Positions 3,341-26,734 of a stretch of DNA of 37,257 nucleotides are shown in pieces. The translations under genes and the position numbers were made by a program. How positions within the stretch are numbered: position 1 is the first letter of the stretch; the number at the start of each line of letters is the position of its first letter. Below the pieces are notes generated by a model. It saw nothing but the letters and a program-made list of their open reading frames with translations. It did not search any database and was not told the origin of the DNA. Location: IMG/VR virus record IMGVR_UViG_2917849834_000002; one strand, written 5' to 3'. This DNA is from a virus (Duplodnaviria; Heunggongvirae; Uroviricota; Caudoviricetes).

Positions 3341-3378
3341 GTGTGGTGGGGCGTTTATGTGGCTTTTATGTCGGGTTA

Positions 3379-6902: not shown

Positions 6903-6909
6903 AAATCAC

Positions 6910-8958
6910 CTATGCTGTACGTATAAACAAACCAATCATGACACCGAACGTATCAGCCGATCCCATCATGTCGCCAGACAATGCCCGGTACGTTCCCGGC
7001 AAACCTGCTCCTGAATCACGAAAATAAGCAGATACGTTGCCGTCGTATACGCCGGCCACGTTACTGGTGAAATGGCCCTTAAATTCAACCGCGCTAAGAC
7101 GCGAGCCAGGGTAATAATAACCCCGCATTATCCGGCGATTCTGGTCTGAAGAGTCACTTCCTCTGTATGCGGCCAGCACCAGACTGCCTGTGCCGTACCA
7201 GGCGTCTGTGGCTCCCGGAGCAATGCCTGACAGAAGATCGATAACGTTCTGAGTGGTAAATTTCAGTGATTCCCAGCCGATGAGATAGCCATTTCCACTT
7301 GTCCAGTAGCGGTTGTGATAAATATTGCCGTTAATGCCATAGAAAGTAATGACCTTTACTGTATGACGCGGGTTCGGCACTCCATACTCTGACTCAACCC
7401 AGCGAATACGAACCATTCCTTTGAACAGCACGTCCGGTATAATTTTATTGCTGCCGTCAACAAGATATTCTCCCGGTTCTGCCTTCCTTACCCACGCAAG
7501 AAAATCATTTTCTGAGTTAAACCTGATGACCTCGTCAGGGAGAAAGATATGACCAAAGCCGAACGCGCCAGGTATAGCCAGGCGGTCTGCCGTGCGGTCA
7601 TGAATGTCACCCTGCGGCTCCAGTGTGGCAGCTTTTCCAAGCTCAAGGATCGTGTGCATGTCTGCCAGTGTTTCCTGCATCAGCAGAGTGCGCGCCATTT
7701 CTGACAGTGTGGAAAGCGAAGCATTCCCTTCCGTATCAAAGCACAATAATTTGTCTGCCCGCGCTTTCAAATTGCTGATGGCGGTTAACACGTCACTGAG
7801 AGGTTGCTTGCCTGCCAGCGCGTTGGTGACTGTTGTTGCAAAGTTCGGGTCATTGCCCAGCGCCGCCGCCAGTTCGTTCAGCGTGTCCAGGGCTTCGGGA
7901 GATGAATCCACCAGTGCAGCGAGCAGTTTGCGGACAAACGCCGCATTTGCGATTTCTGTCCCCGTGGCATCATCAGGCGGTGTCGGGGTTTTCGGAGCGC
8001 CGGTAAAGACCGGACTGTACAGGGTGGCTCTGGCGTTGATTAACGTTAAGAAGTACGCCTCATTTGTCTTCAGGTTATCCCAGCCAGTCAGATAACCACC
8101 GCTGAGAGGCCAGTAACGGTTGTAATAAACATCTCCGTTAACGGTGTATAAAATAATGGCTTTTGCCATATGTTGCGGTTCTGGTGGATTGCGGTTCGCC
8201 TCCAGAAACCGGATATTAATTACACCACAGTAGCCACCGGGTAACACACCATTGGCCCCCTGTACAGAATACTCTCCGGGCGTTGCCTGCTTGACCCATG
8301 CTAGGAGGTCTTTTTCTGTATCAAACCGGATAAGCTCGCCTGGCAGAAACATGTGACCAAAACCAAATGCGCCCGGTATCGCCAGCCGGCCTTCCGTGCG
8401 GTCGTAAATATCACTCTGCGGCTCCATTGTGGCGGCATTTTTCAGTCCCAGATTATCACGGGATTCCTGTTGCGCCTCTTCACCTTCTGCCGCAATTTCT
8501 GACAGGTGGTTAGCCGTTTTCAGCATTGTTTTCAGTTCCGGATAAATATCCATCTGCCAGCTCTGTGGGGGAACCGTGATTTGTGCAGCCTGAGCCATAC
8601 CACTGTAAGTGATTGCAAAATTACGAAGAAGAGTTTCCCCCACATGTTTGTGGTGAACAGGAGTTTTTATTACACCGCATAGCGTGCCACTTGCCTGGTG
8701 AACAAGACAAATCCAGTCATAACTGAATTCGGCGTCTTCAGTGACTGCACCGCTACATACAATGCTGTTTGGGGTCAGTTGTCCGTAGGTGAGTTTGTTT
8801 ACGGTATAAGTAATTTTTTCCGGTGGAATAATATTATCTTCCGGGCTGGGGTCGCGATTCATTAGTGCAAATACGATGGCATCCGGCCGGGCAGGTAAAT
8901 TGCCGGCAATGCATTTTGCAATCCATTTTTCAAATGCTTTCGTTAATAATGCGCTCAT
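6910..8958 (-). CDS. Tail fibre protein 2 (mosaic, with internal duplication)
   Basis: 682 aa; N-terminus homologous to fibre 1; contains the P2 gpH-type motif ALDTLNELAAALGNDPNFATT; two diverged copies of a roughly 125-aa segment (aa ~177-300 and ~445-570). Confidence 0.8.
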   Translation of the reverse strand: MSALLTKAFEKWIAKCIAGNLPARPDAIVFALMNRDPSPEDNIIPPEKITYTVNKLTYGQLTPNSIVCSGAVTEDAEFSYDWICLVHQASGTLCGVIKTPVHHKHVGETLLRNFAITYSGMAQAAQITVPPQSWQMDIYPELKTMLKTANHLSEIAAEGEEAQQESRDNLGLKNAATMEPQSDIYDRTEGRLAIPGAFGFGHMFLPGELIRFDTEKDLLAWVKQATPGEYSVQGANGVLPGGYCGVINIRFLEANRNPPEPQHMAKAIILYTVNGDVYYNRYWPLSGGYLTGWDNLKTNEAYFLTLINARATLYSPVFTGAPKTPTPPDDATGTEIANAAFVRKLLAALVDSSPEALDTLNELAAALGNDPNFATTVTNALAGKQPLSDVLTAISNLKARADKLLCFDTEGNASLSTLSEMARTLLMQETLADMHTILELGKAATLEPQGDIHDRTADRLAIPGAFGFGHIFLPDEVIRFNSENDFLAWVRKAEPGEYLVDGSNKIIPDVLFKGMVRIRWVESEYGVPNPRHTVKVITFYGINGNIYHNRYWTSGNGYLIGWESLKFTTQNVIDLLSGIAPGATDAWYGTGSLVLAAYRGSDSSDQNRRIMRGYYYPGSRLSAVEFKGHFTSNVAGVYDGNVSAYFRDSGAGLPGTYRALSGDMMGSADTFGVMIGLFIRTA

Positions 8959-9515
8959 TATTCTTTATTCTCATTAATAGTTTGCGACAGCTCCGGCCAC
9001 GCGATCGCGGCATACGCTGTTTTATCCGTAATCAGGCTAAAATCCATCACCTGCAATTCCTTTGCGTAAATACGATATGCTCTCAGCTTTTCTTTATCTT
9101 CGTCGCTGATTAACCCCAGCAACAGGTCTTTTTCCCAGTCAGCAGTTAACCGGCTTACATCCTTGAGCTTCCTCACTCGCTCATCTTCTGCCTTTTTACC
9201 GTAATCAAATATGAATTTACCATCCCGGTAAAACCAGTAACCCGATATATCAATTCGTCGGTTAGCTGTGTTATCTGTCACTTCAATCACGCTCCTGTTT
9301 CTGGGGTTAATTGACGCAACATCTTTGCCAACCCAGGTAACTTTTCCTGTATCCAGATATTCGACTTTTAATGTGTCAGGTGAAAAATCTTTCTGAATCT
9401 CATACCAGTTTTCACCAGATTCTGCATACAACCACTCGACGCCATATCTTTTAGTTAACTCATATTGTTCGGCTGTTTTCGGATTGCCCGACGTAATATT
9501 TTTTAAGTGCAACAT
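8958..9515 (-). CDS. Tail fibre assembly chaperone (set 1)
   Basis: 185 aa directly after fibre 1 (TAATG overlap with the next start); Tfa-like size and composition. Confidence 0.65.
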   Translation of the reverse strand: MLHLKNITSGNPKTAEQYELTKRYGVEWLYAESGENWYEIQKDFSPDTLKVEYLDTGKVTWVGKDVASINPRNRSVIEVTDNTANRRIDISGYWFYRDGKFIFDYGKKAEDERVRKLKDVSRLTADWEKDLLLGLISDEDKEKLRAYRIYAKELQVMDFSLITDKTAYAAIAWPELSQTINENKE

Positions 9516-9517
9516 AA

Positions 9518-11176
9518 TTACATACTCGCTACGTTATACCAGGTTCCATTAATCAGTTTCTGAAGGGGGCGGATAAACCACCCGTCGGCAGAGTTATCCC
9601 AGTCTCCGTAGCAGTAGCCACCCACACTGACATAACCCGGGGGAGCCAGGTTTGAGCCTGTACTGCCCATCTGTTGATAACCGCCAAGACGCATATCCTG
9701 TACTCCCATTTTATTTTGCAGGTAAGATGACAGCCATCCTCCCCATGTGCTGCCGTACACGTTACCGTCAGCCGCAAGCCTTGCAGAGCCGTTGCCTGAC
9801 TGTAATTCACCTGTTGCGACACTATTTCCATGCACCAGTGAACCGCCACCGGTGGTCACTTTGTGTGACATGGCAATATCACCAGTCCGCAGGTTAATTG
9901 AGAAAGGACGCAGAGGGCCAATATTGCCATTTTCACCCTGTCCTTCCGTGGTGGGGATAAGATGAAGGCTGTCTTCTGAGCGACGAAAAATCAGACCAAA
10001 GGCGCCATCGAAAATCCTCAGCGCATTAACGTCACGAATTTTCAGTTCCCCGGTCATGGTATCGCCACCTCGCTGAACGGCGCCTTCTGCCTTATCAACG
10101 GTGGGCTTTAGTCCGACGTTTTCAATAAACAGTGGTTTGTCGGGGATGTCGCTGCCGTTGCGATTTTTCGCAAGGCGGGCATTTGCGTTATCCATTGCGA
10201 TTTTTACCGCTTTTGACGTGGCGGCACGGTCTTCTGCATCACTGTCAGTGGCGTTACTGTACTGAGCGAATCCTTTTTCGTTCAGTGTGGCATCCGGGTG
10301 CCTGCGGGATTTTTCGTGTTCTGCCAGTGCATTGCTTTGTTCTTCGTCGGGTGTCTCCGGACGTAAATCCTGTGAGCCGTCTGCTGTCAGTTTTGCAAGC
10401 GGTGCAACAAAATGCCGAAAGCCATTCCCGTCTGTGTAGGATGCATGTTCCGGGCGGGCGCTGAATGTGAAAACCGTATTCCATTCGCCAGTAACAAATC
10501 CCTGCCAGCTTGCATCAATCCAGATGGTGTCCCCGACCGTTGCGCGCAGGCTGTAAGGTTCGCGCAGACTGACGCGCAAACCTCCCACATAACCAATCCC
10601 CGCGGCAACAATGGCGGTGCCGTTCTGATAGCTCACCTGAAAACCGTCCTCCAGAAAAGCGGCTTCACCGTAGTGATCAAACGCCAGCAGTCTGCGGGCT
10701 TCATCCATTCCCGCCAGGCGGGCAGTGAAATCAATCTGCCAGACATCAGCACTGACATCGATATGCATCGCTGCTGCCGCACCGTCAAACTCCATGGAAA
10801 ACGTGCGGATCAGATTGTTTCCCTGTACACCGTTCGCGGTTTTAATTTTTTGCTGGCAGGGGGTGTGCGCAATCATACAGAGCACGCCGCTTTCTTCGTT
10901 CAGCAGGCCAATCCAGTTGTATTCGAAGTCGCCGATTGTGGTATCCAGAATGATGGAAAATGCGGTTGCATTCGGTGACAGGAGACCGTACTGGGTGACC
11001 GGTGCGCGATACTGGATCAGGGTTTCATCAGGGAGCGTTTCGTCGCGGGGGATCTCTGCAGACTCATCCAGTCCCGGAATATATGCAAAAACAAATGTAT
11101 CCGGGCGCGCAGGTTTCCCGCTGATGATCTGATTTGCGCACCAGTGTTCGTATTGTTCAGTAATAATCGTACTCAT
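9518..11176 (-). CDS. Tail fibre protein 1 (P2 gpH-like C-terminal two-thirds)
   Basis: 552 aa; AEHEKSRRHPDATLNEKGF and C-terminal KLINGTWYNV match P2 gpH motifs as I recall them; start overlaps the gpI-like stop. Confidence 0.85.
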   Translation of the reverse strand: MSTIITEQYEHWCANQIISGKPARPDTFVFAYIPGLDESAEIPRDETLPDETLIQYRAPVTQYGLLSPNATAFSIILDTTIGDFEYNWIGLLNEESGVLCMIAHTPCQQKIKTANGVQGNNLIRTFSMEFDGAAAAMHIDVSADVWQIDFTARLAGMDEARRLLAFDHYGEAAFLEDGFQVSYQNGTAIVAAGIGYVGGLRVSLREPYSLRATVGDTIWIDASWQGFVTGEWNTVFTFSARPEHASYTDGNGFRHFVAPLAKLTADGSQDLRPETPDEEQSNALAEHEKSRRHPDATLNEKGFAQYSNATDSDAEDRAATSKAVKIAMDNANARLAKNRNGSDIPDKPLFIENVGLKPTVDKAEGAVQRGGDTMTGELKIRDVNALRIFDGAFGLIFRRSEDSLHLIPTTEGQGENGNIGPLRPFSINLRTGDIAMSHKVTTGGGSLVHGNSVATGELQSGNGSARLAADGNVYGSTWGGWLSSYLQNKMGVQDMRLGGYQQMGSTGSNLAPPGYVSVGGYCYGDWDNSADGWFIRPLQKLINGTWYNVASM

Positions 11177-12989: not shown

Positions 12990-13332
12990 CAAGAGATACC
13001 GTAAAAGTCAGGGGTTCAAAAAAATCTTCGGTGTGGGCGCTAATCAGCAGGCGACCAGAAAGCGGGGTTTCTTCTGTCACACTGACCGTGCCAGGTGTAA
13101 TACGCTCATCATCTTCAATCAGCAGTGTCATCTGCATCATGATGTCGGCACGAAGCGTCGGGCTTTTTTCAGCCAGCAGGCGCGTTGCCAGTCCGCTCTC
13201 AATGATGGCGTGCTGGCAGTCCTGGGCAATACTTTCCCTGTTGTTGCACAATACCGGCTCACTGGCGCTGTTCAGCGTGAGATTGCGACCGGTGATGAGC
13301 AAATCAATGTAAAGCGGTTTATCAGTATGCAT
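12982..13332 (-). CDS. Small baseplate protein in the gp25/gpW position
   Basis: 117 aa from ATG at 13332 (SD GGAG), overlapping the tape-measure stop by 8 nt; assignment is by position only. Confidence 0.35.
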   Translation of the reverse strand: MHTDKPLYIDLLITGRNLTLNSASEPVLCNNRESIAQDCQHAIIESGLATRLLAEKSPTLRADIMMQMTLLIEDDERITPGTVSVTEETPLSGRLLISAHTEDFFEPLTFTVSLDD

Positions 13333-15418
13333 GTAGCTCCATCCACTCGTTGAGGCGGGCAGGGGATGGATCCTGCACATTGACGTTGACCACGCGACGG
13401 GAGTTGTCGATTGTGGTCTGGTTTTCGCTGTTGTTCTGCATTTCTGCCGCAATGCCACCCGGCCCCGCACTGATGGCTTTACCGCCGGTTAATACGGAGC
13501 CTTCGCCACTTCCTGTGCTTTCTGATGTGCCGATGTTAACGCCGGGGATCATGTTGAGTTTGTCCACAATCCAGCCCCATGAATCACTGAAGGACTGTTT
13601 CACCAGTTCCCAGAGGTTACTGAAAATGTTCAGGATGCCGCCGGCGATATCCTTCAGGGCGTCCAGAGGTGAATGCGTGGAAAAATAGTTAACCAGTGCA
13701 TTCCAGCCGTCCTGGATTGTGTTCCATGCATTGCCGAACCATGCCCCCATACTGCCGACCATTTCAGCCACCCACTGAAAGGCGGCGGTATCCATCAGCG
13801 CGGCTTTAATCTCATCCCAGCGGGTGATCAGGAAATAAATGCCCACGCTCAGCGCAGCCAGTGCCAGGATGATTAATGTGATGGGGCTGAAAAGTAACTG
13901 TGTTGCAATTGCGGCTCCGCTGGTGACTGCGGTGTAGATTTTCATTGCTATGCCGGCGGCACCCAGCGCAACAGAATAAAGCCAGAGTCCGGCGCGCTGT
14001 AATTTCAGCAGCGCCAGCTGAATTTTTGCTTTGACGTTGTATGTTCCCATAGCAATGGACATGGCCAGATACAGCGCCCTGACCGTTCGGGCAACTACAG
14101 TGAATGCCCACATGGTAGCCGTCAGTGTGCGTTTCAGCAGAATGAGAATCTTCAGAGGTGCAACTGCTGCCAGCCAGACCAGCCGCAGTCCTGTCCAGAC
14201 AAACTTCGCCACACCCACCATAATGTTGACAACGGCACCCACTGCGGCAATGCCCAGCAGGGCGGCAGACAGTAAACCAATAGCCCGTGTGATATTGGGA
14301 TACAGACGTAACCAGGCAACAAAGGATTTACCGCCTTCGTTGCTTTTCTGGATAAACGGGTACAGAACAGGCAGCAACTGCGTGCCGATTTCGATGCGAA
14401 TGCCGTTAATAATTGCGGCGGCCTGTTCCCATGGATCAGCCATGGCCTGCGCCATTTCGACAGCCTTATCCATACCTTTGATATTGCCCAGCGTGGCGAT
14501 ATTCTTTTCAAGTCCGCCAATGTCCGCATTGAGTAATTTAATCATGGCCACAGCTTCATCGGAGCCAAAGGCGCTTTTCAGCAAATCGGAATCAGCCACT
14601 TTTGACAGATCACCAAATTTGCCCCTGATAAGTTTCATGATCTCGACAACACTTTTCATCGTGCCGTCTTTATTCACGAAATTAAGCCCCAGCTTTTTCT
14701 GGGCGCTGCCTACTGCGGCAAGAAATGCCTTGTACTTTGTCCCGGCCTCGCTGCCACTCATGGTGGCCTGCAGTTGTCCCAGCACGGCGAACTGTTCAGC
14801 CGCATCAATACCGGCCGCTTTTGCACTGGCACCCAGCGTGGTGAACGCCGCTGACATGTTATCGCCGGTTGTTTTAAACATTTGCACGGCGGTGGCGGTT
14901 TGCCCGGCGACCTGCTCCACCCATTTACTTTTTCCCATGGCATCAGCCTGGTCTTTAAAGATGCCGTACATGGTGCCCATGTAGGCGGTAATGGTCTGGC
15001 TGCTGGATTTGGTTGCTGCTGCCACCGTTGCTGATGCGGTGGTGAAGCGGGACAGCTCATCGTCAGTTAACCCGGCAATGGCTGACTGGATGTCGTAAGA
15101 AGCACGCACAAAATCCTGCGCAGCCCCGCCGTATTCCATAGTGAAATCAACGGCGGCGCGGCTGAGTTTACGCAATCCGGACTCTGCGACGCCCAGTGAT
15201 TTCACCTCACCGAGCGCCCTGTCCATTTCAATGGCTGGCATCAGTGCCCCCTGAATGGCAGCACCCACTCCCCAGAGCGCAGCGCCTCCGGTAGCAATGT
15301 CCCGAAAGGCTCCCCGACTTGTTGCAGCAAATCCCTGAACCTGTCGCCCGGCTGCACGCAACGGCCTTGTCAGGCGGTCTGTCAGTTCAAGAAGTAATTC
15401 AAGGCGCTGTTGTGACAT
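13322..15418 (-). CDS. Tail tape measure protein
   Basis: 698 aa, Ala/Gly-rich with central hydrophobic segments; directly downstream of the chaperone frameshift ORFs. Confidence 0.8.
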   Translation of the reverse strand: MSQQRLELLLELTDRLTRPLRAAGRQVQGFAATSRGAFRDIATGGAALWGVGAAIQGALMPAIEMDRALGEVKSLGVAESGLRKLSRAAVDFTMEYGGAAQDFVRASYDIQSAIAGLTDDELSRFTTASATVAAATKSSSQTITAYMGTMYGIFKDQADAMGKSKWVEQVAGQTATAVQMFKTTGDNMSAAFTTLGASAKAAGIDAAEQFAVLGQLQATMSGSEAGTKYKAFLAAVGSAQKKLGLNFVNKDGTMKSVVEIMKLIRGKFGDLSKVADSDLLKSAFGSDEAVAMIKLLNADIGGLEKNIATLGNIKGMDKAVEMAQAMADPWEQAAAIINGIRIEIGTQLLPVLYPFIQKSNEGGKSFVAWLRLYPNITRAIGLLSAALLGIAAVGAVVNIMVGVAKFVWTGLRLVWLAAVAPLKILILLKRTLTATMWAFTVVARTVRALYLAMSIAMGTYNVKAKIQLALLKLQRAGLWLYSVALGAAGIAMKIYTAVTSGAAIATQLLFSPITLIILALAALSVGIYFLITRWDEIKAALMDTAAFQWVAEMVGSMGAWFGNAWNTIQDGWNALVNYFSTHSPLDALKDIAGGILNIFSNLWELVKQSFSDSWGWIVDKLNMIPGVNIGTSESTGSGEGSVLTGGKAISAGPGGIAAEMQNNSENQTTIDNSRRVVNVNVQDPSPARLNEWMELHAY

Positions 15419-15615
15419 TACGATCCCTTAAAAGCACGGATAATGCCGTTATTGACGGCGATGCTCATATTTTCCCAGTAGTGGTTATCCAGCCAGACAG
15501 CGGCAGCCAGTGACTGCGGCGAGTCATCCTCGCCGGGCAGCCAGTGGCGGCGCAGGATCAGCATCCGGGTCAGGTCATTGCGATCAATGGCCCCCAGATG
15601 GCTTTTTATTTTTTT
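15418..15615 (-). other. -1 programmed frameshift extension (E' segment) giving an E-E' fusion
   Basis: From the A7 heptamer at 15609..15615 the -1 frame is open for 63 codons (IKSHLGAIDRNDLTRMLILRRHWLPGEDDSPQSLAAAVWLDNHYWENMSIAVNNGIIRAFKGS) and stops at a TAA overlapping the tape-measure ATG. Confidence 0.5.
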
Positions 15616-15899
15616 ACGGTGATTTCCACTTCCGGCACAAACTCGTTATTCACGGCTGTTGCCAGGCTGGCCGGCATTCCTGGTTTTTCCAGCAACTGGT
15701 TCAGCAGATCGCGGTGCTCTTTAATCACGATGCGGCGCAGGTAGTTTTTCAGCGGCGCGATTTTGTTATCCGGCATGAAGTCGTTCTGCAGATCGTTGTA
15801 GGCTTTAACGGTAGGGATAAACGTCAGTTCATGCTCGCCGACCTGTAAAGTGATGGTGTTCTCTGCGGTAGTCTGGGTGTTTTTATCGTTCATCATCAT
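15606..15899 (-). CDS. Tail assembly chaperone (gpE-like)
   Basis: 97 aa immediately upstream of the tape measure; ends in the slippery run A AAA AAA T. Confidence 0.55.
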   Translation of the reverse strand: MMMNDKNTQTTAENTITLQVGEHELTFIPTVKAYNDLQNDFMPDNKIAPLKNYLRRIVIKEHRDLLNQLLEKPGMPASLATAVNNEFVPEVEITVKK

Positions 15900-15924
15900 T
15901 TCCTTTTAAAGTCAAGAATAAGAG

Positions 15925-15957
15925 GGCTTAATAAGCCTGCAGGAAGGCTTATTAAGC
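15925..15957 (-). promoter_or_regulatory. 12-bp-stem hairpin between endolysin and tail chaperone genes
   Basis: GGCTTAATAAGCC / GGCTTATTAAGC inverted repeat with 8-nt loop, followed on the minus strand by a U-rich stretch; possible attenuator or processing site. Confidence 0.3.
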
Positions 15958-15963
15958 GTAAAA

Positions 15964-16305
15964 TCAGCGCACGCCGTTGTGCTCAAGGCTGAAATGATTG
16001 CCATCCGGGCGGTTTTTAAAACGACCGCCCCATGCGCCACCAAGTGATTCCCAGTACTCGCCCAGCTCGCGGTAGGCCTCTGTGCGGGTCTGATATTCAC
16101 CGTTAATAAACAGGTTAAAATCCACGGCCAGCCGCTGACAGTGCAGGCTGTTGGCAATGCCGGAACCCTTTTGGGCGTTGAGTTTTGCCTGCTCTGGTGT
16201 GCGGTACGCCTCACCGAACGTCAGGCCATAACCACGCTGATGGGCAAACTGGATGAGTTTTCCGATCATGACGGTAAATTGTTGTTGCTTATCGGAGAGT
16301 TTCAT
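15964..16305 (-). CDS. Endolysin, peptidase M15 family
   Basis: 113 aa; zinc-ligand pattern SLHCQRLAVD ... DGNHFSLEH typical of M15 L-alanyl-D-glutamate peptidases; follows a holin. Confidence 0.8.
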   Translation of the reverse strand: MKLSDKQQQFTVMIGKLIQFAHQRGYGLTFGEAYRTPEQAKLNAQKGSGIANSLHCQRLAVDFNLFINGEYQTRTEAYRELGEYWESLGGAWGGRFKNRPDGNHFSLEHNGVR

Positions 16306-16409
16306 TTTTGCTCCTTATGAGGTTGCTGAGGTTTGCGCAGCCAGTACCACAGTGCCCGGATAATTTTCCAGGCAATGGCGGCAGCTTTTTGTTCCCTGCG
16401 GGACAGCAT
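16302..16409 (-). CDS. 35-aa amphipathic basic peptide between holin and endolysin
   Basis: Not in the ORF track. MLSRREQKAAAIAWKIIRALWYWLRKPQQPHKEQK; SD AAAGAGGAG 8 nt upstream; its TGA overlaps the endolysin ATG. Confidence 0.3.
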   Translation of the reverse strand: MLSRREQKAAAIAWKIIRALWYWLRKPQQPHKEQK

Positions 16410-16414
16410 TGCTG

Positions 16415-16711
16415 TTACTCCTCTTTGTTCTCTTTCTCGCCCAGCTTCCGGCGCATATGACGCAGGAAGATTTCAACAATCTGGTAACCGGCAACGCCCA
16501 TTGCGGTGCCTGCGCCGGCAATGGCCAGTGGGTCAAGGTTCGGGTAGCGAACCAGCAGGGCAGCGGCAGAAACACCCAGCGCGCTCCCCAGCAGGGTTCG
16601 GCCCACAAACAACCGCAGCGTAATCGGCTCTGCGCCAGCCAGCACCCGACTTGCGGCAGCGATTCCGCCCAGAATGCCCAGAGTGATAATGGTGCGCTCA
16701 TGCTCCTGCAT
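16415..16711 (-). CDS. Holin (three predicted TM segments, charged C-terminus)
   Basis: 98 aa; three hydrophobic stretches then RHMRRKLGEKENKEE; immediately upstream of the endolysin. Confidence 0.6.
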   Translation of the reverse strand: MQEHERTIITLGILGGIAAASRVLAGAEPITLRLFVGRTLLGSALGVSAAALLVRYPNLDPLAIAGAGTAMGVAGYQIVEIFLRHMRRKLGEKENKEE

Positions 16712-16714
16712 GGT

Positions 16715-17170
16715 TCACCCCATCAGTCCGCGCACGTCGTTCTCTGAGAGAACGGGCACGCCGTTGATACGCACAAAGTCAGGGCTTGCCACCACGTACT
16801 TGATTTTGTGCGTGGTCAGATCTGCGCTCTCGGTGTCAATGCTTAACAGGCCGGAAAGCATCAGCTCACAACCGAAGGCTTCAACGCGGATTTCTTCGGT
16901 TCCCGTATTGGCGTAAAACACAAAATCCATTGGCGGCAGGTCACGCCACGATCCCGCCTGAGCAGCCACTTCCCCGAGCTGGTTAAAGCTGCGGGTACTC
17001 ATTTCGATTTCACCTTCGGCACTGACAGGGCCGCGCAGTTTGCCGTCAGGGATGCCACGGGTTTTGGCAACGGCGCTTTCATCGCTGATGTCCAGTGAGA
17101 TGCTTTTCACATGGATATCCGTTCCACCGATAAAAGTGTCAAACGCCATGCCGTTAATGCGGGTCGTCAT
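16715..17170 (-). CDS. Tail tube protein
   Basis: 151 aa directly downstream of and ATGA-coupled to the sheath gene. Confidence 0.55.
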   Translation of the reverse strand: MTTRINGMAFDTFIGGTDIHVKSISLDISDESAVAKTRGIPDGKLRGPVSAEGEIEMSTRSFNQLGEVAAQAGSWRDLPPMDFVFYANTGTEEIRVEAFGCELMLSGLLSIDTESADLTTHKIKYVVASPDFVRINGVPVLSENDVRGLMG

Positions 17171-18315
17171 GCGTTTTCCTCCAGAGATTTATCCAGCTGA
17201 ATGCCCACTTTGATGGTTTTAGGGCAGGCGTAAGGGCGGACGACAATGCTGATGCTGACCGTCTTTTCGTTCTGCCAGGTGATAACCACGTCGCCTTTCC
17301 GGGGCGATTTCACTTCGCCCGGAAACGTGATGCCGTTAATTTGCATGGATTTCGCCATGGCACGCAGTGGGCGGGCAAACAGCGTTTCATGTGCGGCAAT
17401 GCTGCCCGGCGTGCTGTTCAGCGAGCGGTCGGCAATCTTGGGGATGGCCATCAGCCGCACGCGGCGCGCCACCTTATCAGCAATGCGGACATGCTCAATG
17501 ACGTTGTAGTCCCCGCCTTCCACCTCAAGTGTTACACCGTCAGCCCAGTAAAGGCCGTCATAGTCGGCATACCACATGGGCACGCTGTAGCGGGCGGTTG
17601 CCAGTGCCTGCAGAGTGTCGAGATCAATTGCCTGCCCTGTGCTGTCTTTCGGGCGTTCTGTGGTTTTCAGTGCGGACAGGGGCCCGGTTGCCACACGTGC
17701 TGGACTGTCAGCAATGGTGACGGCGCTGTTACACAGGCGACCGGCAAGAACGCCCGGTTCAAATCCAAAAATCTCCGGAACCAGCATGACCTGCGGGGCT
17801 GCAATGCCTTTCTGTAGTGCGGTCAGTTCGGCAACGTATTCCGCCCAGGTTTTACTGTTGTCGTTGGCGGCGATGGTCAGGATGAACCAGATGCGGCGCT
17901 GATATTTATTGATGATGGTCTGACGTAACGCCTGTATGGCGTTGATGTCATCCTGCGTGCTGACCGGCTCGGTGATCACCACGCCTTCAACTGAAACAGT
18001 TTCCTGAGCCGCCAGTATGGCGTTCTGCCATACCTGGCAGGCTGGCGTTGCTTCTTTGCCTTTGCCGGCTTCCGGCAGAACGGCAACATAGAAAAAGGCA
18101 TTCTGTCCGGCATTGGTCAGTGCAGACTGAAGGAAGTTTTTCAGCGGGCTGGCGTTCTTTCCCAGTAGCTCATCCAGATCGCTGTTGGCATTAACCGGCA
18201 GAACCTCACCTTTGTTGTTTTGTGCATTGCCCACAAACAGCAGCGTATTTTCCACGCCGTCCGGTGAACTGCTGAATGTGTTGTACTGTTCAATCGTGAC
18301 AGATGGCCATGTCAT
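17167..18315 (-). CDS. Tail sheath protein
   Basis: About 383 aa from ATG at 18315 (SD AGGAGA 6 nt upstream; the ORF extends to 18447); size and position before the tube gene. Confidence 0.6.
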   Translation of the reverse strand: MTWPSVTIEQYNTFSSSPDGVENTLLFVGNAQNNKGEVLPVNANSDLDELLGKNASPLKNFLQSALTNAGQNAFFYVAVLPEAGKGKEATPACQVWQNAILAAQETVSVEGVVITEPVSTQDDINAIQALRQTIINKYQRRIWFILTIAANDNSKTWAEYVAELTALQKGIAAPQVMLVPEIFGFEPGVLAGRLCNSAVTIADSPARVATGPLSALKTTERPKDSTGQAIDLDTLQALATARYSVPMWYADYDGLYWADGVTLEVEGGDYNVIEHVRIADKVARRVRLMAIPKIADRSLNSTPGSIAAHETLFARPLRAMAKSMQINGITFPGEVKSPRKGDVVITWQNEKTVSISIVVRPYACPKTIKVGIQLDKSLEENA

Positions 18316-18334
18316 GGTTTGTCTCCTGATTTTG

Positions 18335-19048
18335 TTATCTCGTGCCGCCGTAATGCAGGCTGCGCAGCTGCGCTTCCAGAATGCGGGCAAATTCAGCATC
18401 GCTGGCTCCCAGAAATGCGCGGGAGGGGATTTTGATTTCCCATACACGTTTTTTCTGCTCGCCTTTCAGAATGCTGATCACCAGTCCGGCCTGCGCCATA
18501 CTCATGTTTTCCATAATCCATTTCAGAGAAGGCTTTCTGCGTCCCCTGCGTCCGGTTTTTTTGCTGACTGCGCCGACGGGGGCCCGAAAGCCCAGAGAAA
18601 GAAGGCGTTCTGCCTGCCGTCGTGTGGCGGGACGGGTGCGCATGGCTTCGCTGTCCCGGCGTTTTGTGGCGCGGCCTTTGATGGTTGCGCCGTGCTGTTG
18701 CACCCACGCGACCGCCCCACCATGAGAGCCGGTGTTGTAATCCCCTTTTTTGAAGAAAAGGCGGACACTTTTCCCGCTGCCGTCAACCCTGATGGCCAGC
18801 AATTTCGGCAGTCCCAGCAGCATTTTGTTTTTATACCTGCCGCTGGCTTTATCCGGTCTTTTTCGTGGTGCCCAGGCTGCCCCCTCCGGTGTTCGCTGTG
18901 CTTTCACATTGCGTCGTGCAGCCGGTCTCAGGCCGTATTTCGCAATGCGAACCAGCAGCTTTCTGGCCTTTGCCGGCGGAAGTTCTGCCTCTCTGATGGC
19001 GCGACGAACCTGCCGGAGTTGTGACTCGTTAATCACGGGGCTCGTCAT
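18335..19048 (-). CDS. Virion morphogenesis / tail completion protein (gpS-like)
   Basis: 237 aa, basic; positioned between the R-like and sheath genes; ATGA-coupled to the R-like gene. Confidence 0.45.
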   Translation of the reverse strand: MTSPVINESQLRQVRRAIREAELPPAKARKLLVRIAKYGLRPAARRNVKAQRTPEGAAWAPRKRPDKASGRYKNKMLLGLPKLLAIRVDGSGKSVRLFFKKGDYNTGSHGGAVAWVQQHGATIKGRATKRRDSEAMRTRPATRRQAERLLSLGFRAPVGAVSKKTGRRGRRKPSLKWIMENMSMAQAGLVISILKGEQKKRVWEIKIPSRAFLGASDAEFARILEAQLRSLHYGGTR

Positions 19049-19518
19049 GGCATCACCTGGCAGTGAAGCTGATGCGCCTGAGCCACCCAGATTTCAGGCT
19101 TTTCCAGCTGGTAACGTTTCCCGCCTCTGGGGATGGGGCCGTTTTCGTCCTCAACCAGGGTGATGGGATCAACCAGCGGCAGACTGATTTCCAGCCATGC
19201 CACTTCATTTTCATCATCCACTTCGACGTCAACGGCTGGCGCATCCGGTGCCAGGCGCTGGCGCAGGTCGCCGCCGTTGTCTGCCAGCCAGGCTTCAACC
19301 AGAGAAAACACCAAATCCGGATTGAGCTGACGATAGGGCCATGCGTCCCATCGCAGAAAAGCCGTATATTTTCGGACCTGCGTACATAACTGCCCGTGCC
19401 CCAGCGACTTCGTAAACGGAACGAGCGTGATGTCATCCATGTCACTGGTGAACGGAATGCGTGCGCGTGCCGGCAGATTGTTTTCAATGAATGCCGTCAG
19501 GCTGGCGAGTTGCGTCAT
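19045..19518 (-). CDS. Tail completion protein (gpR-like)
   Basis: 157 aa; immediately after the head-completion gene, size close to P2 gpR. Confidence 0.45.
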   Translation of the reverse strand: MTQLASLTAFIENNLPARARIPFTSDMDDITLVPFTKSLGHGQLCTQVRKYTAFLRWDAWPYRQLNPDLVFSLVEAWLADNGGDLRQRLAPDAPAVDVEVDDENEVAWLEISLPLVDPITLVEDENGPIPRGGKRYQLEKPEIWVAQAHQLHCQVMP

Positions 19519-19527
19519 ACCATTTCC

Positions 19528-20022
19528 TTAATCAATCAGCGCGATGGATGCACGCGGTCGGCCCAGCAGCGCCCGCACCGCCATGGCCGCTTCAGCCAGC
19601 AATGTCCGGCGGCTTTCGCTGGCTTCTGATGATGGCTGCGCCTCGCGCCGCCCCACGCTGGCAGATTCCGGCAAAAGATCGGCCTTTGCGCGGGCATACA
19701 CAGCCTTGGTGTACAGTGCTGTAATGTGGTTCTGCATCCGTTCAGGTTGTGCATCCGTATTGCGCGGCTCTGGTTGCAACACGGTGTAACCCGGAATATC
19801 AGCGGCCCGGATGTGGCCCTGTTCCTGCCAGTATTCACGGCGTGCAGCCAGTTCAGTGTTAATCTCTGTTACCGCGCAAAGCAGCGCCGTCAGCACCGTT
19901 TCGTGTGACGTGACGGCGGGGATGCTGCGGCTCTTTTCAAAATCGCCGGCATCAATATCCGGCCAGAATCCATCGTTCTGAATAATGGCCTGCTGATAGT
20001 GAATGCTTTTCCCGTCAAACAT
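19528..20022 (-). CDS. L: Head completion protein (gpL-like)
   Basis: About 164 aa from ATG at 20022 (the ORF extends to 20217); downstream of the small terminase subunit, as in P2. Confidence 0.65.
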   Translation of the reverse strand: MFDGKSIHYQQAIIQNDGFWPDIDAGDFEKSRSIPAVTSHETVLTALLCAVTEINTELAARREYWQEQGHIRAADIPGYTVLQPEPRNTDAQPERMQNHITALYTKAVYARAKADLLPESASVGRREAQPSSEASESRRTLLAEAAMAVRALLGRPRASIALID

Positions 20023-20120
20023 GCTCACTCCGGGGAAAGGCGGGCTGACCGGTTTCCGCAGTGTGCTGATGGCTTTTGCCGGCACACCTCCACCGCGCCC
20101 GCCCGGTTGTTGGGAGTCGT

Positions 20121-20831
20121 TTACGTGCCCTGCAACGCGCGCAGTCTTGCGGCAATGCGCTGGCGCAGGGTTTTCACCTGAATTTTTGGATGCAGCCAGG
20201 CAGCTCGTTCCAGACACTGGTCGGCCTGTTGCAGTCTCTCCGGATCGTTAATTGCACTGGCCAGCGGTTTACCGTCATCGCCGCGCAGCAGCAGGACGCC
20301 TGCAAAGCGCCAGTAGCGGGCAGCAAGGCGTTCATTCACGCGCCATTTGTCACGGATTTTTTCAAACACCTGCTGAAAATATGGCGCGATACTGTTCCCG
20401 CGTTCAGCTTCGGTTTCTGCCCATTCAAGAATGAAATGGGCCACAAACGTTGGCAGCTCGCTTTTGAAGTTCTCCGGCGTCTTCTGTCCCTGCTCAATGG
20501 CAATGTCAGCCCACCGTAGCGCCATCTCAAACTGCCCGGTATCGAACAGCCAGATGATGCAGTACACCAGAATGGGATTCTGATAGACGCGTTCCCCCTC
20601 CAGATAAGCCTGTGCGTGTGGCAGCCAGCGGGGCAGCAGCGTGTTCCGTTTGAATTCCAGCTTGTCAGACAGCAGCTCCATGTTGTGCAGTTGTCTGATG
20701 TCGTTATCCAGTGCCAGCAGCTTAATGTGCTGACTCTCTGTGCTGATGGCGCTCCCGTCCGTTCTGGTCATGAGCGCCGCACGGCGCTCATCCATCTGTC
20801 GGGCACGTTGTCGCTGCATTGGCGTTGGCAT
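20121..20831 (-). CDS. M: Terminase small (endonuclease) subunit, gpM-like
   Basis: 236 aa in P2 order O-N-M-L. Confidence 0.75.
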   Translation of the reverse strand: MPTPMQRQRARQMDERRAALMTRTDGSAISTESQHIKLLALDNDIRQLHNMELLSDKLEFKRNTLLPRWLPHAQAYLEGERVYQNPILVYCIIWLFDTGQFEMALRWADIAIEQGQKTPENFKSELPTFVAHFILEWAETEAERGNSIAPYFQQVFEKIRDKWRVNERLAARYWRFAGVLLLRGDDGKPLASAINDPERLQQADQCLERAAWLHPKIQVKTLRQRIAARLRALQGT

Positions 20832-20848
20832 ACCGTGCGCTCCGTTTA

Positions 20849-21862
20849 TCAGGCGATGGTGACCGCAGACTCATCCACGGCAGCATATAAATCCGGATCG
20901 CCCAGGGCGTACCCCTCGTAACGCCAGTATGAGTTTTCGAACTGTTTGCGATCGCCCACATCTTCTGCCTTGCGGCGGCGGGAGCCTTTCAGCGTCAGGA
21001 TCTGCAGGTTTGGCAGCATGGTCACCACCATACGTTTGCCCGGCATAAACGGCGGAATGATGGCCTTGCGGCCTGCAATGTTCTTCGTCAGCAACTGTGC
21101 GGCCACTTTTTCGGTAGGCTTATCCTCTTTGTTGTAGAGGCGTAGTTCTTCAGCAGCCACAAGGTCTGCGCCGACCAGTACGGTAAGTCGTGGGTCGTTG
21201 TGATACTGTGCCGGGATGTAAGTGCGGATCAGGTCTGAGGCCATGGCATCAAGACCGACATAATCGCCGCCTTCGCCCAGGGTAACGGCGTCTGTCAGAA
21301 TACGGGAGGTATTGCCGGGCTGTTCTCCCCACTTTTTGGCGATTTCATGCCAGCCGATGTTGACGTCCTCGCCGTTCGGATGGCTTTCAGGATCGGAGTT
21401 TTCCGCTGCTGTTTTACCGTTAAAGCCAATGCGCAGCATATCCAGCGCAAAGTTGGTAACGGCTGCGGAGTTCATCAGGTTGAAAAATTCCTGCGGGCTG
21501 CCAGCATTCGCCCAGATGGCGAGTTGTTCCCAGGTGATCACGCAGCAGGAATCAGTTTCAACGAGTTTAAATTCGTTGCCTTTGATGCCTGAACCTTTGG
21601 CGAAACGACCGCTTTTCACGCGACCGGTGCGCAGCGTGGATTCACCCACGGTGACGACCTGTCCCTGCGGGTGCGGAACGTCCATGCAGGTGATGAAACT
21701 CAGAAACTCGGTGCTTTCCAGCAGGGCTTTACGCAGGGCAATGCTGCGCGGTTCGGTCAGAGAAAAAGCGCGATCACCTGAGGCAGCGCAGTCACTGAAT
21801 GTTTTTTGCAATTCGCTGAGGTACTGATTAACCAGCTTTTGTGCTTCTGGTGTCATGTTCAT
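20849..21862 (-). CDS. N: Major capsid protein, gpN-like
   Basis: 337 aa between scaffold and small terminase genes. Confidence 0.8.
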   Translation of the reverse strand: MNMTPEAQKLVNQYLSELQKTFSDCAASGDRAFSLTEPRSIALRKALLESTEFLSFITCMDVPHPQGQVVTVGESTLRTGRVKSGRFAKGSGIKGNEFKLVETDSCCVITWEQLAIWANAGSPQEFFNLMNSAAVTNFALDMLRIGFNGKTAAENSDPESHPNGEDVNIGWHEIAKKWGEQPGNTSRILTDAVTLGEGGDYVGLDAMASDLIRTYIPAQYHNDPRLTVLVGADLVAAEELRLYNKEDKPTEKVAAQLLTKNIAGRKAIIPPFMPGKRMVVTMLPNLQILTLKGSRRRKAEDVGDRKQFENSYWRYEGYALGDPDLYAAVDESAVTIA

Positions 21863-21876
21863 TGCGTTCTCTCCGG

Positions 21877-22758
21877 TTACACCAGGTTAAAAGTTTCGCC
21901 ACCGGCCGGATTGTTACCCGGCAGCTTCGTGGCATCCTTGCTGAGTTCAGCAAATGCGGTTTCCATGCTGGTGACTTTCTCCGCGATGGCGTTCACCGTG
22001 GAGAACAGCTTTTCACCCTGCTCGGTGGTCAGCGTGAAGGTTTTGTCGTCCTTGTTGTTCTGTTCTGCGTTGTCCTGCCCCTGATCGCCAGTGCTGCCTT
22101 CCGGCTTGTTATCACCGGTATTTTTCGGGGCATCCTTCGCGCTGAACTGCGCGACGTTTTCTTCCAGTTTGTCCAGGCGTTCGCCGGTTTTGTTGATGGC
22201 GTCCATTAACTGACCGAACTGTTTTTCGTTCATATCGTTTTCCTGTTTGAATGGCCAGAGCTGTGAGAACCATGCCTTTTTGGCTATCTCGTCATCTGAC
22301 TGTAATGTGAAACAAAGTTCCTCCACGTTTCCCGTGCGAATAGCTTCGCCCTGTGAAAATTGCAGGCGGGTGGTGTGGATGCTGGCAGGGGTGTCGGTTA
22401 CTGTGAGGGCGCGGAGATAAAACTTTCCCGTTCCCATGTAATTTTCACCAACATCAATAGAGGTAAACAGCTTTTGCCCCGCTTTATTCGCCTCAAGTAA
22501 AAAGCGATTTGGCGTAATGCGGGCCTTGAGCTGAATTTTGTCGCCGAATTTCTCTGTTTTGAGTGCATCCACATGACCGTAATTATCAACAAACTGATAA
22601 GTGTAGGGGGATGCATGAAATGGCCAGAGCATGGCAGTGCGCTCGTCAGCGTTGTAAACCTCCGCCGCATCTGTCAGCCATTTGGGATCAATCTCCCGCC
22701 CGTCAACGGTCGGGCCTGATGTGGCTATCACTATCCAGTCTGTTTTTTGTTTCGTCAT
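21877..22758 (-). CDS. O: Capsid scaffolding protein, gpO-like
   Basis: ATG at 22758 (the track ORF starts at an upstream TTG); acidic Lys/Glu/Asp-rich C-terminal half; divergent from P. Confidence 0.75.
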   Translation of the reverse strand: MTKQKTDWIVIATSGPTVDGREIDPKWLTDAAEVYNADERTAMLWPFHASPYTYQFVDNYGHVDALKTEKFGDKIQLKARITPNRFLLEANKAGQKLFTSIDVGENYMGTGKFYLRALTVTDTPASIHTTRLQFSQGEAIRTGNVEELCFTLQSDDEIAKKAWFSQLWPFKQENDMNEKQFGQLMDAINKTGERLDKLEENVAQFSAKDAPKNTGDNKPEGSTGDQGQDNAEQNNKDDKTFTLTTEQGEKLFSTVNAIAEKVTSMETAFAELSKDATKLPGNNPAGGETFNLV

Positions 22759-22840
22759 CTGAATCAACCCGCTGATAAAAATTAACTGGTGTTATTTAAG
22801 AGGGAAATAAAAAAAACGTCACCTGATTAATTTCCGGTAA

Positions 22841-22866
22841 TTTCGGATATGCGCACATATCCGAAA
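22841..22866. promoter_or_regulatory. 26-bp palindrome in the divergent late-promoter region; candidate activator site
   Basis: TTTCGGATATG cgca CATATCCGAAA (11-bp arms, 4-bp spacer) in the 193-bp gap between the O and P starts. Confidence 0.4.
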
Positions 22867-22951
22867 AATACCGAAAAGAGATATTCGTTTTTAAAAAAAC
22901 CTTTGCTGAAAATGCATAAATTAAAATTGCATCAGCAGGTGAGGTTTATTT

Positions 22952-24739
22952 ATGGCGTATTCTGATGAGGTGATTGCTGCTGCAAAATCGCTCTATCTGA
23001 AAAGACACACACCAAAAGAAATACAAAAAAAACTCGGACTGAACAGTCCGCGAATTGTTTATTACTGGGCGACAAAATTTGAGTGGTACACGCAGCTTAA
23101 TACTGAAGGCGTGGAGGATGTTATCGCCCGTCGTCTCGCTGTACTGGCGGAGCGTGATCATAAAACGCCGGAAGAACACGATGAACTCGATCGCCTGATT
23201 GGCCATCACGTCAAACTGATGTCGGTCAGGAACAAGCACACGGAACGAATGGCCGAGATTGAACGAATGGGAGCGGATATTCCCCAGTCTGGTCGTTATG
23301 GAAAAGAAGAACGCGGAGAAAAAGGTGCAGGTAAGAAAGAGCGCCCCCGCAAAGCTAATGACGTTTCCGGACTGACAGCGGAAAGTTTTGAGCCGTTTAC
23401 GAAAAAATTGTTTGCTTATCAGTTGCGCCTGCGTGAAAACAAATTCCGCCGTGTGCGCAACCTGCTTAAATCCCGCCAGATTGGGGCGACGTATTACTTC
23501 GCGTTTGAGGCATTTGAAGATGCAGTATTAACCGGCGACACACAGATATTTTTATCGGCATCAAAACGTCAGGCCGAAGTGTTCCGTACTTATATTGTAA
23601 AAATTGCACAAACAGAGTTTGGTATTCCCATTAAAGGCAATCCGGTTAAGTTAAGTAACCTGGCTGAACTGTATTTTCTGGCGACCAACAGTAACACAGC
23701 GCAGTCAAACAGCGGCCACCTGTATATTGATGAATACCTGTGGATCCCCGGTTTTCGCCGTCTCAATGAAGTGGCATCAGGGATGGCCACCCATAAACAC
23801 TGGCGCATTACCTATTTCTCCACGCCGTCATCCAAAACACACCAGGGTTACCCGTTCTGGTCTGGCGATGAATGGCGCAAAGGCGATCCGAAACGAAAAG
23901 GGGTTGAGTTTCCGTCCTTTGATGAGCTGCGCGATGGTGGGCGTGAATGTCCGGATGGTCAGTGGCGCTATGTGGTTACGCTGGAAGATGCTATTGCCGG
24001 CGGTTTTAACCTTGCTGACATCAACGAGCTGCGCGAGCGATACAACGAAACAGCGTTCAATATGCTGTTTATGTGCGTGTTTGTGGATGACAAAGAGAGC
24101 GTCTTTAAATTCGATGATCTTGTGCGTTGTGGTGTTGATGTCAGTACGTGGGAGGATTATCACCCGGAAGAGTCCATGCCATTTGGTAACCGTGAGGTGT
24201 GGGGCGGCTTTGACCCGGCGCGCTCCGGCGATAACGCCACATTTGTTGTGCTGGCACCGCCGCTGGTTGCGGCAGAACGATTCCGCGTGCTGGAAAAACA
24301 CCACTGGCGCAGCATGTCATTCCAGTTTATGGCAGAGCGTATCCGCAGCATTAAGGCGCGCTATAACATGACGTTTATCGGCATTGACGTCACCGGTCTT
24401 GGTTACGGTGTCTTTGAGCTGGTTCAGGGATTTGCCCGCCGTGAAACAGTGGCCATTCATTACAGCGTGGAATCCAAAAACCGCCTGGTGATGAAGATGC
24501 TGGATCTGATTTACGCCAACCGTATTGAGTGGGATGAGGAAGCCACGGATATTCCGGCATCGTTCCTGGCCATTCGTCAGGAATCCACCAACAGCGGCAA
24601 TAAAGTCACTTTCACCGCCGAACGTAGCGAAGAAACCGGGCACGCTGACATCTTCTTTGCCATAGCTCATGCCGCAAGTAATGAACCCCTGAACTATAAG
24701 CACAAGCGCAAATCAACATGGATCCTGTCAGATGAGTAA
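22952..24739 (+). CDS. P: Terminase large (ATPase) subunit, gpP-like
   Basis: 595 aa; Walker A-like KSRQIGATYYF; overlaps the portal gene start by 8 nt. Confidence 0.9.
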   Translation: MAYSDEVIAAAKSLYLKRHTPKEIQKKLGLNSPRIVYYWATKFEWYTQLNTEGVEDVIARRLAVLAERDHKTPEEHDELDRLIGHHVKLMSVRNKHTERMAEIERMGADIPQSGRYGKEERGEKGAGKKERPRKANDVSGLTAESFEPFTKKLFAYQLRLRENKFRRVRNLLKSRQIGATYYFAFEAFEDAVLTGDTQIFLSASKRQAEVFRTYIVKIAQTEFGIPIKGNPVKLSNLAELYFLATNSNTAQSNSGHLYIDEYLWIPGFRRLNEVASGMATHKHWRITYFSTPSSKTHQGYPFWSGDEWRKGDPKRKGVEFPSFDELRDGGRECPDGQWRYVVTLEDAIAGGFNLADINELRERYNETAFNMLFMCVFVDDKESVFKFDDLVRCGVDVSTWEDYHPEESMPFGNREVWGGFDPARSGDNATFVVLAPPLVAAERFRVLEKHHWRSMSFQFMAERIRSIKARYNMTFIGIDVTGLGYGVFELVQGFARRETVAIHYSVESKNRLVMKMLDLIYANRIEWDEEATDIPASFLAIRQESTNSGNKVTFTAERSEETGHADIFFAIAHAASNEPLNYKHKRKSTWILSDE

Positions 24740-26730: not shown

Positions 26731-26734
26731 TGGT

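Follow-up and report, generated by a model that had tools for sequence, protein, structure and literature searches.

A short cationic peptide gene in the spanin-less lysis cassette of an HP1-like Escherichia coli prophage: a candidate disruptin

Introduction

How does a phage open the outer membrane of its host when its lysis cassette lacks the spanin genes that its relatives carry? This question is raised by IMG/VR virus record IMGVR_UViG_2917849834_000002, a stretch of 37,257 nucleotides (the whole of which we call the window) that is a P2-family prophage of Escherichia coli, running from cargo genes at its left end through to the integrase at its right. Between the tail tube gene and the tail assembly chaperone gene, all on the minus strand, lie a P2-Y-type holin, a 35-amino-acid (aa) open reading frame (ORF) that we name pep35, an M15 endolysin and a hairpin. 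We asked whether pep35 is a gene, what became of the Rz/Rz1 pair and which role the peptide could have in lysis.

Results

pep35 is a small gene under selection

The cassette is made up of the following features.

16415..16711, minus strand: holin of the P2 gpY / 'phage holin family 2' type, 98 aa (PF04550, PHROG 175)
16302..16409, minus strand: pep35, gene for a 35-aa cationic amphipathic peptide, MLSRREQKAAAIAWKIIRALWYWLRKPQQPHKEQK, candidate disruptin (selection, homologue, in-frame deletion allele)
15964..16305, minus strand: endolysin, peptidase M15 (VanY-like), 113 aa, cytoplasmic type (PF13539, PHROG endolysin families)
15900..15963, minus strand: 64-bp spacer in the slot where relatives have Rz/Rz1 (gene order in about 50 loci)
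15926..15957, minus strand: RNA hairpin with a 13-bp stem and a 6-nt loop, followed by CCCUCUUAUUCUU (folding)

The pep35 start lies 5 nt past the holin stop, with a GAGGAG Shine-Dalgarno sequence inside the last holin codons, and it ends in a TGA that shares the sequence ATGA with the endolysin ATG. The endolysin gene is found 110 bp downstream of the holin.

We compared 27 DNA copies of the region, drawn from the window, E. coli genomes, IMG/VR and metagenomes. Among the 14 variable sites of pep35, nine are synonymous and five non-synonymous, giving a ratio of non-synonymous to synonymous polymorphism (pN/pS) of 0.15 (binomial p = 5.6e-4). In the remaining five frames of the region the ratio is close to 1: it is 0.74 and 1.27 in the two on the sense strand, and no antisense frame displays a synonymous excess. 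The only indel seen is an in-frame 9-bp deletion that yields a 32-aa allele; a common allele, Q34-stop, ends two codons early and yields 33 aa.

A phmmer search of 1.84 billion representative proteins returned the peptide's own cluster and one true homologue, a protein of 39 aa (MKLTDRQQKRAAIAWKILRTLWRWLCKPQKTSKDKNETL, E = 1.3e-5) found in the same context on a metagenomic contig, L082. Three other matches were long repetitive proteins matched in many short stretches and were set aside as spurious. The tube proteins of L082 and the window are 92% identical (84% at the nucleotide level) and their endolysins 96%, compared with 54–61% for the peptides. The two peptide genes differ by 33% at the nucleotide level, with the core AAIAWKI(I/L)R(A/T)LW(Y/R)WL(R/C)KPQ intact. 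Their pairwise ratio of non-synonymous to synonymous substitution rates (dN/dS) is 0.30 at a dS of 0.9; for neighbouring genes it is 0.04–0.08. The chain of coupling from holin to endolysin is kept in both of these divergent versions.

Beyond this clade, the searches were negative. pep35 has no Pfam family above threshold and no PHROG family; tblastn against 50,697 phage records gave no match at E values up to 10; a degenerate-pattern scan of viral and metagenome contigs returned the same clade only; and neither the window nor any fetched locus holds a paralogue or donor sequence. The gene is called on more than 1000 contigs, and RefSeq PGAP omits it in every record inspected. Based on the pattern of substitutions and the homologue, we conclude that pep35 is a real, selected coding gene.

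The product is a predicted cationic amphipathic helix

The predicted product is a 4.4-kDa peptide with an isoelectric point of 11.1 and a net charge of +7. An AlphaFold (AF2) model has a single helix at residues 4–24 (pLDDT 74), followed by a polar tail that is disordered. Plotted on a helical wheel, K8, K15, R18, Y22, R25 and K26 lie within an arc of about 120 degrees, so that all basic residues of the helix share one face, and the rest is hydrophobic, including W14, W21 and W23 (hydrophobic moment uH about 0.45). Position 22, on the polar face, is Y, H or R in natural alleles. The first-pass annotation of this locus had called the peptide amphipathic and tightly coupled, and the helix, the 5-nt gap and the ATGA overlap agree with that description.

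A hydropathy scan of pep35 found no transmembrane (TM) segment (maximum KD19 0.41) and no signal sequence. Among 260 ORFs of 28–60 aa in all six frames of the window, pep35 alone combines such charge, hydrophobicity and moment, by thresholds that were set post hoc.

In length, charge and amphipathic helix the peptide is like the cationic alpha-helical antimicrobial peptides (e.g. LL-37), and its interfacial face is Trp-rich. Unlike them it is phage-encoded, cytoplasmic, devoid of a signal peptide and without homology to them, so the likeness is physicochemical only.

The neighbouring genes encode a holin and an M15 endolysin

The holin matches PF04550 over profile positions 1–85 of 86 (E = 5.5e-28, 97.7 bits against a cut-off of 25) and PHROG 175 'holin' (1.2e-32). 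Hydrophobic segments lie at residues 7–27 and 36–54, with a weaker one at about 61–83, and a charged C-terminal tail, RHMRRKLGEKENKEE, follows; these come from a simple hydropathy scan, which leaves the exact number of TM segments unsettled. With its profile match, small size, several hydrophobic segments, charged tail and endolysin neighbour, the protein has the features of the PF04550 family and is predicted to form holes. Homologues are found in P2-like phages such as PSP3, and the holin gp29 of coliphage phiKT, at 28% identity (E = 1e-11), belongs to the same family.

The endolysin matches PF13539 (3.2e-11, 44.1 bits against a cut-off of 25) and four PHROG endolysin families. It has the Zn-binding H-x6-D motif and C-terminal His of M15 peptidases, and the motif S53-L-H55-x2-R-L-A-x-D62 with D101-G-N-H104 and H109 is kept in at least 94% of 50 orthologues. 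It has neither a hydrophobic segment (maximum KD19 0.71) nor a signal sequence, and it is 70–81% identical to its counterparts in spanin-bearing relatives. A PDB sequence search with the endolysin matched no solved structure.

In the 27 copies, pN/pS is 0.09 for the holin, 0.12 for the endolysin, 0.06 for the tube gene and 0.04–0.12 for the structural genes. The earlier proposal of a lysis cassette made of a holin, a small peptide and an M15 endolysin, set within the tail operon, is thus upheld by the PF04550, PF13539 and PHROG matches and by the tube and chaperone genes on either side. Two of the further analyses that it had called for gave an M15 assignment for the endolysin and, for the holin, two clear hydrophobic segments and a weaker one.

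No spanin genes are found in the window

The first-pass annotation noted that no Rz/Rz1 pair is evident, and had allowed that spanins or a second lysis cassette might turn up elsewhere. We searched the window for both. In tblastn with 98 Rz and Rz1 sequences of the family, nothing in the window scored better than E = 0.012 over 23 residues. A six-frame lipobox scan of the window returned only antisense ORFs without a Shine-Dalgarno sequence, and no credible Rz1 or unimolecular spanin. ORFs in the window's unassigned gaps comprise a Hok-like toxin and a few small hydrophobic peptides of the early region, and nothing spanin-like. Near the cassette there is no combination of a TM inner-membrane protein and a lipobox lipoprotein, as expected of a two-component spanin, and only 64 bp separate the endolysin from the chaperone gene; the lipobox scan likewise found no protein with the N-terminal lipobox and C-terminal TM segment of a unimolecular spanin.

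Two places where a spanin gene could be hidden were considered and rejected. An Rz1 gene embedded in the holin or endolysin gene is contradicted by alternative frames with pN/pS of at least 1.25 and no lipobox; because these frames show no selection, no embedded gene is maintained there. pep35 as the degenerate N-terminus of an Rz is in the wrong position and has no similarity to one. A second lysis cassette was found neither in PHROG scans of 20 further ORFs of the window nor in the PGAP annotation of a near-identical prophage, L001. Within the window, the absence of an Rz/Rz1 pair has therefore held up against homology, lipobox, gap-ORF and alternative-frame searches.

Relatives carry Rz/Rz1 in the slot occupied by the spacer

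The capsid, terminase and portal genes of the window are P2-type; its tail sheath, tube and chaperone genes are HP1-type. The tail genes around the cassette are as follows.

17167..18315, minus strand: tail sheath gene (DUF2586 / PHROG 907; PF10758 3e-127; start at 18315 per the PGAP annotation of near-identical prophage L001)
16715..17170, minus strand: tail tube gene, HP1 Orf24 family (PF10772 1.1e-50; PHROG 1182 tail protein)
15606..15899, minus strand: tail assembly chaperone, Phage_TAC_10 (PF10963 1.6e-26)
15418..15564, minus strand: DUF6890 small protein between chaperone and tape measure (PF21830 3.5e-24)
13322..15418, minus strand: tail tape measure protein (PF10145)

Haemophilus phage HP1 is annotated with the order orf23 (sheath), orf24 (tube), hol, lys, Rz-like orf25, orf26, orf27, and the annotations of Yersinia phage vB_YenM_324, Salmonella phage SI7, Cronobacter phage ESSI-2 and Escherichia phage ESSI2_ev239 agree with it. 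A tube-protein profile scan of one genome per bacterial species gave 50 loci. In every readable one outside the peptide clade, about 45 prophages of other species, holin, endolysin and overlapped Rz/Rz1 genes fill the slot between tube and chaperone. Pseudomonas and Nitratidesulfovibrio outgroups fit this layout too, though their holins and lysozymes are unrelated. The Rz1 ORFs of relatives have a lipobox in 45 of 49 cases, and 40 of 49 Rz ORFs have an N-terminal hydrophobic segment.

The window shares with the HP1-like phages the order sheath, tube, holin, endolysin, chaperone and tape measure. With the four enterobacterial phages it also shares the tube family, the M15 endolysin family (76–81% identity) and related holins (31–60% identity), whereas HP1's own endolysin is a longer and different protein. 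The differences are two: where these phages have Rz/Rz1 (or an Rz-like gene) after the endolysin, the window has a 64-bp hairpin spacer, and where the holin of relatives overlaps or directly abuts the endolysin start, the window has the 35-aa gene in between.

The first-pass annotation had singled out the location in the tail operon as unusual compared with P2. This did not stand, since P2 is the wrong yardstick for tail genes of HP1 type (PF10772 is 'HP1 Orf24'), and the position is ordinary because HP1, four other phages and about 45 prophages all place their lysis genes between tube and chaperone. From these gene orders we take the position to be standard for HP1-like Peduoviridae and ancestral in the lineage. 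In P2 the lysis genes (Y, K, lysA, lysB, lysC) have the head-completion genes on one side and the tail-completion genes on the other; its K protein is a lysozyme and no M15 peptidase, lysB/lysC serve as spanin equivalents, and LysA is a multi-TM protein. The P2 region resembles that of the window in its PF04550 holin and in having small accessory genes beside holin and endolysin, and differs in that none of the P2 accessory lysis genes was found in the window by the Rz/Rz1 homology and lipobox scans.

At one further locus, an HP1-like prophage of E. coli JNEC-KY171 (NZ_AP045167.1, locus 3333-4085), a DNA methyltransferase gene lies between the holin and the M15 endolysin, and the gene in the spanin position is kept. 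Judged from such gene orders, extra genes seem to enter repeatedly at the holin–endolysin junction. Two metagenome-assembled genomes, labelled Bacillota and Bacillales, hold segments of enterobacterial-type HP1-like prophages with tubes 52–54% identical to that of the window; mis-binning or contamination is the probable explanation for both contigs.

Spanin loss and peptide gain fall on one branch

Only three lineages have no Rz/Rz1: the window, a prophage of E. albertii NBRC 107761 and contig L082. Precisely these three have a small ORF between holin and endolysin, and in all of them the endolysin is followed by 64–73 bp with a hairpin. In a neighbour-joining tree of sheath plus tube, rooted with HP1, they make up one long-branched clade amid spanin-bearing lineages. 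Because of this placement, the ancestor is taken to have had spanins, and loss and gain to have happened once, on the same branch; read from the tree, they are a single evolutionary event.

The spanin-less state is older than the split from L082, whose tube gene is by now 84% identical at the nucleotide level. At 96.5–99% identity, the 1.9-kb region is found in 41 complete E. coli chromosomes, which places the clade in 41 of 5426 complete E. coli genomes. With structural genes at the low pN/pS given above, this spread and the age of the state indicate, on the sequence record, that the spanin-less lineage is not decaying.

A conserved hairpin fills the spacer

The hairpin at 15926-15957 has a perfect 13-bp stem, with only five G-C pairs, and a 6-nt loop. 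Its presence after the endolysin had been noted before; the stem is one pair longer than the 12 bp then given. An 81-nt fold at this site has an energy of -22.6 kcal/mol (z = -2.8 against shuffles). Among the 27 copies the spacer varies at a single site, which lies outside the stem. The L082 hairpin differs at two stem positions, on both sides each time, and pairing is kept (C-G to G.U and U-A to C-G); the 13-bp stem is common to the window and L082 versions, whose fold energies are -18.6 and -19.1 kcal/mol. The presence of G.U implies that selection has acted on the sense-strand RNA.

A scan of both strands of 13000-23200 for sites resembling terminators lists the hairpin first. The U content of its tail is only moderate, however, and the genes that follow it are essential tail genes. 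An Rfam search of the region found no family, and a consensus scan found no promoter between the hairpin and the chaperone gene. We regard the hairpin as a predicted attenuator or mRNA-stabilising or processing element.

Other features of the window

Several observations lie outside the cassette. The separate 48-aa DUF6890 ORF, 42 nt downstream of the chaperone gene, shows conservation throughout the family and may be the counterpart of the frameshift extension found in chaperones such as P2 E/E'. Two successive sets of a tail-fibre gene and a small downstream gene occupy 6330-11176 on the minus strand: 9518-11176 with 8958-9515 (whose L001 counterpart is annotated as an assembly protein), and 6910-8958 with a DUF4376 gene at 6330-6902. 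This region is 71–80% identical to L001, compared with 93–96% for the rest of the prophage.

The left-end cargo includes a Hok/Gef-type 46-aa toxin ORF (2408-2548, minus strand), so annotated in L001, and a DNA methyltransferase gene (1224-2015, minus strand; PHROG 67, 2e-81), where L001 also has a RuvC-family gene. At 26425-27694 (minus strand), genes for a ParM-type segregation ATPase and a partition protein (PHROG 2515) adjoin the replication endonuclease gene, so that this integrated prophage has a partition system like that of a plasmid. A related Pectobacterium locus is labelled a 24-kb plasmid.

In the early region, a C4 antisense RNA (RF01695, 80.4 bits; 31342-31429, minus strand) lies beside an isrK Hfq-binding RNA (RF01394, 69.6 bits; 31465-31539, minus strand), and both overlap an ORF at 30979-31596 (PHROG transcriptional regulator). 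The pair has the look of a regulatory module of the P1/P7 immI or Gifsy isrK kind. An early-region gap also contains a 37-aa ORF (33692-33805, minus strand; MNIFISWLVLIFSVVCAIGIMRIIHSVKKIERFFTGE) that is strongly hydrophobic and could encode a small membrane protein.

Discussion

What, then, would a 35-residue cationic helix do in a cassette that has lost its spanins? In the searchable literature only one disruptin has been characterised, gp28 of the spaninless coliphage phiKT. It is a 56-aa protein of net charge +7 with predicted amphipathic helices and no targeting signal, encoded between endolysin and holin, which complements lambda Rz/Rz1 mutants and is bactericidal on par with LL-37 in standard assays; according to its authors it has no homologues beyond one near-identical phage (10.1101/515445).

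pep35 and gp28 have in common a net charge of +7, a predicted amphipathic helix, the lack of signal and TM sequences, a location at the holin–endolysin junction, a cassette without spanins and a holin of the same family. They differ in length (35 against 56 aa), in the three Trp residues of pep35 and in gene order, which is holin, peptide, endolysin in the window and endolysin, peptide, holin in phiKT; the one resides in a temperate myovirus-type prophage and the other in a virulent podophage. pep35 has those marks of a disruptin that can be read from sequence: fewer than 80 aa, a net charge of at least +4, a predicted amphipathic helix, no targeting signal and a place in a spanin-less cassette. 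It lacks sequence homology to gp28.

By this analogy it is quite possible, if short of probable, that pep35 is an outer-membrane disruptin like gp28 of phiKT. Somewhat more tentatively, we suggest that pep35 and its 39-aa relative form a second disruptin family, unrelated in sequence to gp28, that took over the outer-membrane role from Rz/Rz1. The gene may have arisen de novo at the holin–endolysin junction.

Under the disruptin model, lysis would start with the P2-Y-type holin permeabilising the inner membrane. The cytoplasmic M15 endolysin, having no signal sequence, would then escape and cut the peptidoglycan. In relatives the overlapped Rz/Rz1 pair encoded just downstream would next fuse inner and outer membranes. 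In the window's clade, the spanin genes have been deleted, leaving the 64-bp hairpin spacer, and the 35-aa gene has been inserted between holin and endolysin with translational coupling on both sides. pep35 would leave the cytoplasm through the holin lesion together with the endolysin, or cross the inner membrane unaided, and after murein degradation would bind and destabilise the outer membrane directly, as gp28 does.

Several points weigh against a disruptin role. The perfect anticorrelation of spanins and peptide amounts to one evolutionary event and could be a coincidence. About 15% of phages of Gram-negative hosts have no recognisable spanins (10.1101/515445), and spanin-defective lysis can go ahead under shear, so a dedicated outer-membrane disruptor may not be strictly needed. 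The hydrophobic moment of pep35 is unexceptional for its composition, being reached by 382 of 5000 shuffles. pep35 and gp28 give no BLASTP alignment even at E = 1000, and pep35 is the shorter of the two. The holin–endolysin junction also takes unrelated morons, as with the DNA methyltransferase of the other E. coli HP1-like prophage that has a gene in the spanin position. Finally, the prophage is known here from its sequence, and no sequenced phage isolate has the cassette (megablast of the 1.9-kb region against the 50,697 phage records gave no match).

Alternatively, pep35 could regulate lysis timing at the holin or inner membrane, whether as an antiholin, as a pro-holin cofactor or by depolarisation, in a phage that does without an outer-membrane disruptor. 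The gene does follow the holin directly and is translationally coupled to it, P2 has lysis-timing genes (lysA) beside holin and endolysin, and a cationic amphipathic helix made in the cytoplasm would be expected to meet the anionic inner leaflet of the inner membrane first. Small accessory proteins acting at the holin step exist as well, for example the 65-aa Lcc6 of LambdaSo (10.1101/2024.01.23.576932). Nonetheless, Lcc6 and the antiholins known to us are membrane-embedded or have a periplasmic domain, whereas pep35 has no TM segment; no such factor is needed by about 50 relatives whose holins and endolysins are of the same families; and the concurrent loss of Rz/Rz1 is left unexplained. We consider this account unlikely, and a disruptin-like role would fit the comparative data better than an antiholin. 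The first-pass suggestion that the peptide is an antiholin or another lysis regulator keeps some probability, but the TM or periplasmic domain of an antiholin is missing, and the suggestion does not account for the Rz/Rz1 loss.

It is distinctly improbable that pep35 is a moron unrelated to lysis (a small toxin, exclusion factor or host modulator) that settled at a permissive junction, with the spanin deletion an independent event. The methyltransferase at the same junction speaks for such an origin, as do a gain and a loss on one branch that may coincide by chance and the faster evolution of pep35 compared with its neighbours (dN/dS 0.30 against 0.04–0.08). Against this, pep35 has no promoter of its own and, starting 5 nt past the holin stop and overlapping the endolysin start, would be made only with the lysis proteins; both divergent versions preserve the coupling chain; and its physicochemistry is that of a membrane-active peptide.

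A non-functional ORF, whether a chance ORF or a coupling spacer in a lysis-impaired cryptic prophage, is very hard to credit: its omission by RefSeq PGAP, the missing Pfam and PHROG matches and the common Q34-stop allele agree with it, but the synonymous excess is restricted to the pep35 frame (p = 5.6e-4), the helical core persists in L082 at 54–61% identity despite 33% nucleotide divergence, the sole indel is in frame, Q34-stop costs just two residues, and the flanking structural genes are under strong purifying selection in a prophage that is not decaying.

To our knowledge, the exchange of spanins for a peptide has not been described before in the searchable literature; the parts of the cassette and its position were already known. 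The locus offers a clean comparative case, with about 50 related cassettes that have Rz/Rz1 and one clade that has switched to a selected gene for a 35-aa cationic peptide, a gene left out of RefSeq annotation in every genome inspected.

If pep35 is indeed a disruptin, and complements a spanin defect, disruptins would be a recurrent, independently evolving solution to outer-membrane breach, and a rule for finding more would suggest itself, namely to look in cassettes without spanins for small cationic ORFs that are coupled to a holin or endolysin gene. A minimal, genetically selectable antimicrobial peptide of 35 residues would then be available, and the prophage would represent a natural replacement experiment in genetically tractable E. 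coli.

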